Source: TPA_inf: Saccharomyces (taxonomy: Eukaryota). Taken from it: a DNA stretch of 64,000 nucleotides. Of this stretch, positions 31,072 to 32,451 are shown piece after piece. The stretch spans positions 608,001 through 672,000 of the forward strand of contig BK006943.2 of assembly GCA_000146045.2 (NCBI GenBank), in the 5' to 3' direction. The notes under the pieces are model-generated. The model saw nothing but the letters and a program-made list of their open reading frames with translations, did no database searches and had not been told where the DNA came from. Numbering within the stretch: position 1 is the stretch's first letter; each line of letters starts with the position of its first letter. A program made the translations under genes and the position numbers.

Positions 31072-31198
31072 CTATTTCTCAAGCAAATGTAGATTGGAGC
31101 CAAGACGAACATTTAAAGCCGTATAGAACTACTTTGTTTCTTCTTCAGATGATCATTTCTCATATATGGTCACGTGGCTCGATGTTTATCGCTTTATC

Positions 31199-31219
31199 TT
31201 TTTTTTTTTTTTTTTTTTT
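31199..31219. repeat. Poly(dT) homopolymer of about 21 nt
   Basis: Counted directly across lines 31141 and 31201. Confidence 0.9.
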
Positions 31220-31537
31220 GCTTTTCATTTTGGCTCTGCTCTCTGTATTAGCTCATCATTTAACGCAAATGACCACGAGACAATAAACCGACGAGGAATG
31301 TGCTCATATGTCTCGCCAATACCTCTAAATAATTGACCGCGCGATTATTTAGTGTGACCAGAGCAAAGTAGCTTTGCGTCCGACCATGCAACCATGGATA
31401 TACTCAAAAATGGCAATAGTGTGCCCCTAATACGTTTGCTGGCCAGTATCCCTTTCTGAAATAAGCTAAACCCTTGCAACCACCAGGGGTGCCGCCGTCC
31501 TAACTTTCCAGCCTGGCAGCGCGTCGAGTCGCCGAAT

Positions 31538-31563
31538 GTTGCGGGCGCTGCCCCGCCCGCAAC
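31538..31563. repeat. Perfect GC-rich inverted repeat GTTGCGGGCG-ctgccc-CGCCCGCAAC (10-bp stem, 6-nt loop) inside a 200-bp GC-rich island
   Basis: The two arms are exact reverse complements of each other. Confidence 0.85.
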
Positions 31564-31708
31564 ACCGCGCCCGCCCTGCCTCAGCTTAACCGAAACCACA
31601 CGGGTCTGCCATCTTCCATATACCCTGGCTCTTCTTTCACAATGCCCGCTCACAACGCCAACTGCAAAAGAAGCCCGCCCTTAGTCGGTTTTCCCCACTT
31701 TGATATAA

Positions 31709-31727
31709 CCCCCCCCCCCCCCCCCCC
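31709..31727. repeat. Poly(dC) homopolymer of about 19 nt
   Basis: Counted directly. Confidence 0.9.
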
Positions 31728-31941
31728 GCATCAACTGGTAATTTAACCCAAACACCACGGGGTCATAATTTAAAAGCGAAAAACCTTAAAGCGTTCTCGA
31801 AGAAATCTTCCTGTAGATGATGTCGTAGCAAACTTATCTTTTAGAGTGTTTGTGCTTACTGCATTGTCAGATCAAAATTTACGTAGCCGCCCTTTTCAAC
31901 CCCTGTCGAAGAGTAGCATAACAGCAGCGTAGTGAACGTGC

Positions 31942-31989
31942 ATGTTCACAAATACACGTACAATATTAATATACAATAGTAAGGTGATG

Positions 31990-32041
<52 letters not shown>

Positions 32042-32451
32042 CAGGAGATCAAGTTAGTGTGAGGGGACGACTACTGAGTTTGAAGTTCTTTAAAGTGTTA
32101 AAGTTATTTTTCCCCTCTCCCACCTCGTTGGCAACCTCTCACCCACCGCTTAGCAGCATGTCTCCGTACATGACCATACCTCAGCAATACTTATACATAA
32201 GCAAGATACGTTCCAAGCTGTCTCAGTGCGCCCTTACTCGACACCACCACAGAGAACTTGATCTACGAAAAATGGTGGGCCACGCCAATATGCTGGACAG
32301 GATCCTCGACGAAATAGACGAAATCGACAGCGAGGTAGTACTGTGTGACGCTGCCGATGGTTCTTCTACTGCAGAAGCTCATTCCGCTTCCCCAGCATCC
32401 AGCGACTCTTCTCCTCTCACTAATAACATCCGGCCCATTAGCATTATGTGA
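31942..32451 (+). CDS. Protein of unknown function (YJR115W-like, ECM13 paralogue); the N-terminal extent is doubtful
   Basis: 169-aa ORF from an ATG. The N-terminus is encoded by the (AC)n/(AT)n microsatellite. In-frame downstream Mets at 32158 (MSPYMTIPQQ...) and about 32272 (MVGHANMLDRILDEIDEID...) are more plausible conserved starts. Confidence 0.55.
31991..32041. repeat. (AC)19 followed by (AT)6 dinucleotide microsatellite
   Basis: Counted directly. It overlaps the 5' part of the annotated YJR115W ORF, where it encodes THTHTHTHTHIYIY. Confidence 0.9.

Follow-up and report, generated by a model that had tools for sequence, protein, structure and literature searches.

Where does the protein encoded by YJR115W of Saccharomyces cerevisiae begin, if its annotated open reading frame (ORF) starts in front of a dinucleotide repeat, and what are the extreme low-complexity tracts that separate this gene from its neighbour RSM7? 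Both questions arise in a 64-kb stretch of S. cerevisiae DNA containing the region NNF1-RSM7-YJR115W-TDA4-STE24 (the window, to which positions refer). The annotated ORF at 31942-32451 on the forward strand comprises 169 amino acids (aa), and its residues 17-34 read N(TH)6IYIY; the sequence holds six TH units, one more than was counted in the original prediction, a note on this stretch made without database searches. We consider it highly probable, judging from comparative sequence evidence, that the annotated start has been placed ~216 nt too far upstream, that YJR115W encodes a 97-aa protein with a core promoter located past the annotated start, and that the T21, C19 and (AC)19(AT)6 tracts in front of it arose by slippage.

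Start of the YJR115W protein

The strain sample consists of the DNA of 25 S. cerevisiae assemblies together with the window, giving 26 sequences, some counts being made on 24; conservation between species refers to a four-species alignment in which four-way invariance was calculated per 50 nt. Searching with the part of the protein that follows the repeat retrieved orthologues of 97 aa in S. mikatae, 98 aa in S. kudriavzevii and 87 aa in S. uvarum. All three begin with MSP(Y/F)(M/I)TIPQQYLY, which corresponds to Met73 of the annotated ORF at position 32158. Upstream of this conserved ATG the frame is closed after 18-43 codons in the three species and in a further Saccharomyces contig (L015), and in none of five non-cerevisiae loci, these four among them, does an in-frame upstream ATG occur before a stop. 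The upstream ATGs of the annotated ORF, at 31942 and 31987, are conserved in no other species, the former being without a counterpart in S. mikatae. Their base at position −3 is poor (T at the annotated ATG, G at the second) compared to the A found at the conserved ATG, whose GCAGCATGTC context is invariant.

The paralogue ECM13 leads to the same position. An exhaustive search with a profile built from the 97-aa proteins retrieved 41 relatives, almost all of which carry the motif SxQQYLLASKxRSKL...DYDLRxLVGHANLLD at residues ~3-60. The profile matches residues 3-61 of S. arboricola Ecm13p, and residues 6-58 of a single Zygosaccharomyces protein named 'ECM13 (YBL043W) and YJR115W'. In ECM13 and in the pre-duplication homologues the conserved domain forms the extreme N-terminus. 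From the place of the motif in Ecm13p and its homologues it follows that the homology between the paralogues begins at Met73 and stops short of the repeat. No homologue of the 72-codon extension was found anywhere in the protein and profile searches, and we judge the annotated N-terminal 72 codons (31942-32157, forward strand), which between species vary more than any other stretch, to be non-coding.

The alignments thus show the conserved protein, as far as homology can tell, to be the 97-residue ECM13-family core starting at 32158. The corresponding 97-codon ORF (MSPYMTIPQQYLY..., 32158-32451, forward strand) likely represents the real YJR115W protein. Strain and orthologue proteins carry the precomputed Pfam label PF27894 (ECM13_helical); a local Pfam scan of the 169-aa ORF gave zero matches, the copy used presumably being without the PF27894 model. 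The exact 169-aa sequence is absent from a collection of 15 billion proteins, in which near-identical strain variants are present. The more recent annotations of the sister species, like those of many strains, are implicitly based on the 97-aa model already.

A coordinate given in PMC3289889 was considered as a start site and rejected, being only the start of the ORF in an older genome release; the neighbouring gene is displaced by the same 6 bp. None of nine papers found to mention YJR115W discusses its start or its repeats, and the gene is absent from the supplementary lists of Malabat 2015 and Higdon 2023, which hold transcription-start and translation data.

Repeat length and reading frame among strains

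The microsatellite of the window consists of (AC)19 at 31991-32028 (19.5 units if counted to 32029), followed by (AT)6 at 32029-32040, both on the forward strand; the former was located by Tandem Repeats Finder and by a regular-expression scan. Among the S. cerevisiae assemblies this compound tract ranges from (AC)5 to (AC)22 with (AT)4-8, some alleles being interrupted, and two assemblies add pure runs of (AC)84 and (AC)94. Its total length spans 22-204 nt, with 15 distinct lengths in 24 assemblies.

This variation decides whether the annotated start is connected to the conserved protein at all. In 8 of the 26 assemblies the frame of the ATG at 31942 runs on into the conserved ORF; in the other 18 it is out of frame or interrupted. 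In the out-of-frame strains its frame runs for 26-90 codons and meets a stop before 32158, and no compensating change was found in strains with a broken extension. Counted by contigs in a partial cluster listing, the long forms make up ~27-39%. Both values are near the one third that is expected of a dinucleotide repeat without selection on the frame. The 97-codon ORF is intact in every strain, with a diversity of 0.003 and no insertions or deletions, compared to a diversity of 0.006-0.018 in the extension. The 72-codon extension exists only in strains whose repeat count keeps the ATG at 31942 in frame, and it is conserved neither in length nor in frame nor in existence.

The annotated proteins reflect this. 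Lengths of 59, 93, 97, 130, 143, 147, 159, 161 and 163-169 aa occur in S. cerevisiae, with differing TH/IY segments of 2-6 TH units, and the 97-aa form (P0039) alone is found on 53 contigs. The proteins of 143 and 147 aa were considered as deletion alleles of the repeat and rejected, as they are spliced gene models with an invented intron that skips it. Such an intron is modelled across the repeat in the annotations of two long-read assemblies (L026 and L027), leading to 147-aa products. These two carry pure (AC)94(AT)7 and (AC)84(AT)5, respectively, four to five times longer than the other alleles. A further observation concerns a CC interruption in some alleles (L007, L014 and L024), e.g. 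(AC)3CC(AC)10, by which ACACCCACACAC is formed; we take this to resemble a telomeric C1-3A or Rap1-type motif.

Outside S. cerevisiae, S. mikatae has an imperfect, interrupted (AC)n at the same place, and (AC)n is absent in S. kudriavzevii, which has a polymorphic (AT)n instead, and in S. uvarum.

It had been proposed that the real start is a downstream Met and that a gain or loss of one 2-nt unit would shift the frame. The first proposal is borne out by orthologues, paralogue and frame, and the second by the 18 assemblies in which the annotated ATG does not lead into the conserved ORF. The two comparisons suggested along with them agree: the ECM13 alignment does not extend across the TH-repeat segment, and the TH/IY segment is not kept in length or frame across strains and species.

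A TATA consensus at the end of the microsatellite

If the protein begins at 32158, the DNA in front of it should be read as a promoter, and the pattern of conservation is consistent with this. The most conserved part of the intergenic region is a block at 31728-31925 (four-way invariance 0.34-0.58), which is likely regulatory for YJR115W. Within it, GTTCTCGAAG at 31793-31802 is invariant, a block of 34 nt occupies 31844-31877, and only 5 segregating sites were found among 24 strains. The invariance falls to 0.0-0.1 over 31926-32025, where the annotated ATG and the (AC)n lie, and recovers from 32126 toward 32158.

Between the conserved block and the conserved ATG the compound repeat occupies the positions 117-167 bp upstream of 32158. 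Its 3' end can be read equivalently as (TA)6 at 32030-32041 on the forward strand, where TATAWAWR fits in three overlapping registers, 124-128 bp in front of the conserved ATG. A match at −122 to −132 from this ATG is present in all 24 strains scanned. The corresponding distances are −121/−123 in S. mikatae, from −136 in S. kudriavzevii, −101/−103 in S. uvarum (a single TATATAAA) and from −116 in the contig L015. The 3' end of the microsatellite thus coincides with a conserved TATA consensus, which precedes the ATG by 101-136 bp in every strain and species examined.

Yeast TATA elements peak ~65 bp upstream of the transcription start site, and leaders are commonly 30-40 nt long (Lu and Lin 2019, PMC6633255). 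Applied to the position of the TATA consensus, this spacing predicts a start site at ~32060-32150 with 32158 as the first AUG; in the window no ATG occurs between (TA)6 and 32158. We therefore propose, from position and conservation, the following arrangement. The (AT)n end of the microsatellite would be the expanded, putative TATA box of YJR115W. Transcription may start ~60 nt past it, so that the mRNA would have a short leader with its first AUG at 32158, and the (AC)n would act as a variable spacer between the block at 31728-31925 and the TATA box.

Origin of the three tracts

With the start at 32158, the divergent genes RSM7 and YJR115W are separated by 1182 bp (30976-32157). Two further tracts lie in this region, T21 at 31199-31219 and C19 at 31709-31727, both given for the forward strand and found in agreement by inspection of the sequence, Tandem Repeats Finder and the regular-expression scan. 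In the whole window no A/T run is longer than T21, no C/G run longer than C19 and no dinucleotide run longer than (AC)19; the second-longest C/G run has a length of 7. From the base composition, ~5e-9 runs of C19 or G19, ~2e-6 of T21 or A21 and ~1e-18 of (AC)19 are expected in 64 kb, and expectations this small argue that the tracts are products of slippage and not of chance. The probability that three random non-coding points fall within 850 bp is ~0.002, a value calculated post hoc.

All three tracts have many alleles, and the AC/AT boundary shifts between strains. The same slippage behaviour, including the shifting boundary, was observed for long repeats and adjacent repeats in mismatch-repair-deficient yeast (Lang et al. 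2013, PMC3755907). A sequencing or assembly artefact can be dismissed, as independent assemblies contain the same tracts in many allelic forms, and long C alleles mostly go together with a flanking single-nucleotide polymorphism. The tracts are real, slippage-derived and polymorphic. The 1.18-kb divergent region would accordingly have acquired three independent replication-slippage tracts, whose length variation is probably near-neutral and may at most cause a modest change in spacing and nucleosome occupancy.

The original prediction had placed T21, C19 and (AC)19(AT)6 within ~850 bp between RSM7 and YJR115W and had called them slippage-prone and different among strains. All three are found in place and are length-polymorphic in the 26 S. 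cerevisiae assemblies, and the flanking genes had been named correctly, a minus-strand Ribosomal_S7 gene ending at 30975 and an ECM13_helical gene downstream. Its view of the region as one promoter element holds for the location in promoter DNA and fails for the single element, the tracts being divided between the RSM7 promoter, the distal upstream region of YJR115W and the YJR115W TATA region.

T21 and the RSM7 side

The distance from T21 to the RSM7 ATG is 224-244 bp, with the ATG downstream, and 23 bp from the tract a CACGTG box is found at 31171-31176, a Cbf1/Pho4-type E-box by its consensus, to which such a factor may bind. S. kudriavzevii and S. uvarum also have the box close to the T tract, and S. 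mikatae has part of it. The S. cerevisiae alleles extend from T3 to T25 in the 26 assemblies and form two groups, T3-6 in six (the CEI assembly among them) and T14-25 in the rest; the HN1 assembly has a long interrupted T tract. S. uvarum carries T24, S. kudriavzevii T11 or T7 and S. mikatae an interrupted T-rich stretch. The tract more plausibly belongs to the RSM7 promoter. Position and conservation suggest that T21 beside CACGTG may serve the divergent RSM7 gene as a poly(dA:dT) promoter element and, as such, would disfavour nucleosomes.

The RSM7 ORF itself is located on the minus strand at 30232-30975 and is transcribed away from the intergenic region. It encodes 247 aa from the ATG at 30975, the ORF list starting from a GTG at 30984, and a 247-aa Ribosomal_S7 gene is found at the same place in all related loci. 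The synteny NNF1-RSM7-YJR115W-TDA4-STE24 is common to the four Saccharomyces species; in S. mikatae, S. kudriavzevii and S. uvarum it is marked by the Pfam labels Ribosomal_S7, ECM13_helical, TRAM_LAG1_CLN8 and Peptidase_M48.

C19 and the GC-rich distal region

C19 is located 431-449 bp upstream of the conserved ATG, directly 5' of the conserved block and at the 3' edge of a C-skewed region (31400-31730) with 58-61% guanine and cytosine (GC) in the composition profile, compared to 39% in the window. The region contains an invariant CCCCTAAT at 31424-31431 and an AGGGG at 31485-31489, both putative stress-response elements by their consensus. At the tract itself S. cerevisiae has C5-C13, C10TC7 and C19 alleles, of which C6 is the commonest (CEI has C6, HN1 C5) and the allele of the window the longest seen. 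Other species have C6-C8 or none. A flanking T/C polymorphism accompanies the long C alleles in most cases, and this speaks against assembly noise as the source of the variation in C length. C19 may represent an expansion, in the reference lineage, of an ancestral C5-6 within a C-rich distal upstream region. A short-read contig of the Logan collection with the normal arrangement (L019) has its 5' end at ~31734, at the poly-C and 208 nt upstream of the annotated ATG, which suggests that short-read assemblies break at this homopolymer.

In the same region an inverted-repeat search found a palindrome with perfect 11-bp arms around a 6-nt loop (TGTTGCGGGCG / CGCCCGCAACA, 31537-31547/31554-31564). 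S. mikatae has a version matching at 8/10, with two differences on paired positions. An essential hairpin at this site is ruled out, since one S. cerevisiae strain deletes 31519-31544 and with it the left arm. A non-coding RNA in the GC-rich region is ruled out by Rfam scans and folding: at gathering thresholds the window contains only snR3 and a tRNA, both elsewhere, a permissive scan of 30900-32500 gave only low-complexity matches to mir-297 and SCARNA7 far below threshold, and folding of 31440-31730 was no better than that of shuffled sequences (z = −1.4, both strands).

Alternative explanations

Some points weigh against the interpretation given above. The strains were picked by protein variant, and the in-frame fraction is therefore not an unbiased estimate. 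Most of the homopolymer lengths were read from long-read assemblies, so that small errors in them are possible. Six of the 26 strains have only T3-6, and a long T run is thus not essential for RSM7. Finally, a TATA-like ATAATTTAAAAG at ~31764 is common to S. cerevisiae and S. mikatae and could drive longer transcripts that include the repeat.

The likeliest of the alternatives is that the repeats are selected tuning elements, whose lengths set nucleosome occupancy and the spacing between block and TATA box and thereby adjust the expression of RSM7 or YJR115W. The tracts are all located in promoter DNA, and their lengths differ widely (the compound tract spanning 22-204 nt), and repeats in promoters are described to act via spacing, Z-DNA and nucleosome exclusion (review PMC5622345). 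Set against this, the lengths seem to be scattered without constraint, short alleles are common at the T and C tracts (CEI having both), and the tracts are short or absent in the sister species. We regard selection for tuning as possible and on balance unlikely.

A second explanation arises from 15 short-read contigs which encode a chimeric product of 164 aa (P0048). In these, YJR115W from the (AC)n onward, i.e. the TATA consensus and the ORF, is joined to a left flank with TRM13 and a gene for a 423-aa malate/lactate dehydrogenase, which ends 128 bp before the repeat. We take this flank to be the MDH2-TRM13 neighbourhood. The junction contigs stem from at least four sequencing runs. Four loci were read (L032-L035); they show an identical junction of (AC)12.5(TA)5 at ~3030-3086, with 25 nt of AC and 10 nt of TA, match the window from 32030 onward and differ by 0-4 substitutions over 4.8-6.5 kb. 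The junction could be a real rearrangement via (AC)n tracts; it could also be a chimera of k-mer (de Bruijn) assembly, provided that the other locus has an (AC)n(AT)n with at least five AT units. One might picture the (AC)n as a fast-mutating dial for the block-TATA spacing (natural alleles of 5-94 units) which is at the same time a recombination breakpoint, joined in one strain group to a tract on another chromosome. This combined picture we hold to be improbable. If true, recombination would replace the whole YJR115W promoter by the 3' flank of the malate dehydrogenase gene, with only the TATA box left.

Still less probable is a long leader, in which transcription from upstream of the microsatellite, e.g. 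from the TATA-like element at ~31764, places the repeat in the mRNA leader. The repeat length would then decide whether the AUGs at 31942 and 31987 give an N-terminal extension or a repressive overlapping upstream ORF, in analogy to a contingency locus, in a eukaryote. In its favor, two upstream ATGs do precede the repeat, the out-of-frame strains open the frames of 26-90 codons mentioned above, and S. mikatae shares the ~31764 element. This element is, however, not conserved in S. kudriavzevii or S. uvarum, and the in-frame fraction is about that of chance. With upstream AUGs and upstream TATA-like sequence both unconserved, and the (AT)n TATA downstream conserved in all species, the long leader is disfavoured. 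The weakest explanation, a lineage-specific, translated and functional TH/IY extension that makes the 169-aa protein real in the reference strain, is barely credible: the window has an uninterrupted frame of 169 codons, 7 other assemblies are likewise open, and annotators kept the long form wherever it is open, but the extension is without homologue, is broken without compensation in two thirds of the strains, starts in a poor initiation context and contains the conserved TATA consensus.

Other features of the window

A second microsatellite, rich in AC and TACA, is located at 33702-33752, shortly past the TDA4 ORF and at a distance of 1.7 kb from the first; it consists of (AC)7 and, after this, of TACA and ATACATAT repeats. 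Rfam places snR3 at 55749-55942 and reports a tRNA match of 101 nt at 9919-10019 with 49.8 bits, while ARAGORN finds no tRNA anywhere in the window. The match is presumably an intron-containing tRNA gene.

Relation to known systems

Variable tandem repeats in yeast promoters were reportedly described by Vinces and colleagues in Science in 2009. The repeat at YJR115W resembles these in having a short unit, in its position between regulatory sites and the core promoter, and in being highly length-polymorphic among natural strains. It differs from the repeats of this type (reviewed in PMC5622345) in being hidden inside an annotated ORF of the reference, and a link between its length and expression or nucleosome occupancy is putative.

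Poly(dA:dT) promoter elements are said to have been treated by Iyer and Struhl in 1995 and by Segal and Widom in 2009. The perfect T21 beside CACGTG, ~230 bp upstream of the RSM7 ATG, and the long T tract in S. uvarum are in agreement with such an element. The T3-6 alleles in 6 of the 26 S. cerevisiae assemblies set it apart, and nucleosome depletion at T21 is putative.

As for the start codon, 122 corrected and 57 alternative starts were reported for S. cerevisiae by Lu and Lin (2019, PMC6633255), where the comparative approach of Kellis 2003 and Cliften 2003 is cited. YJR115W shares with the misannotated starts of that study an N-terminal segment that is absent in orthologues, and a downstream in-frame ATG which is the first AUG after the likely core promoter. 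Unlike there, the false extension is made and destroyed by a polymorphic dinucleotide repeat, leading to a strain-specific error.

With bacterial contingency loci the gene has in common a repeat inside the annotated ORF whose unit is not a multiple of three and whose length shifts the frame. The conserved YJR115W protein, in contrast, has its own start downstream of the repeat, and changes of frame do not switch it off. A contingency locus is therefore ruled out, the conserved ORF being intact whatever the frame of the repeat.

The locus combines two well-described kinds of feature, promoter microsatellites with a poly(dA:dT) tract on the one hand and a misannotated start on the other. It is ordinary and well understood, and poses no challenge to current understanding.

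The practical value lies in annotation, as the reference model of YJR115W with 169 aa should probably be one of 97 aa. Work that uses the annotated N-terminus targets promoter DNA, which concerns tagging, promoter definitions, deletion designs and counts of 'intragenic' repeats or frameshifts. Beyond this, the locus shows how a polymorphic dinucleotide repeat makes a strain-specific false extension of an ORF, and how gene-model pipelines cope with it in other strain assemblies by truncated models or invented introns. Given its very wide range of alleles, the locus lends itself to studying in natural strains how promoter spacing affects expression.

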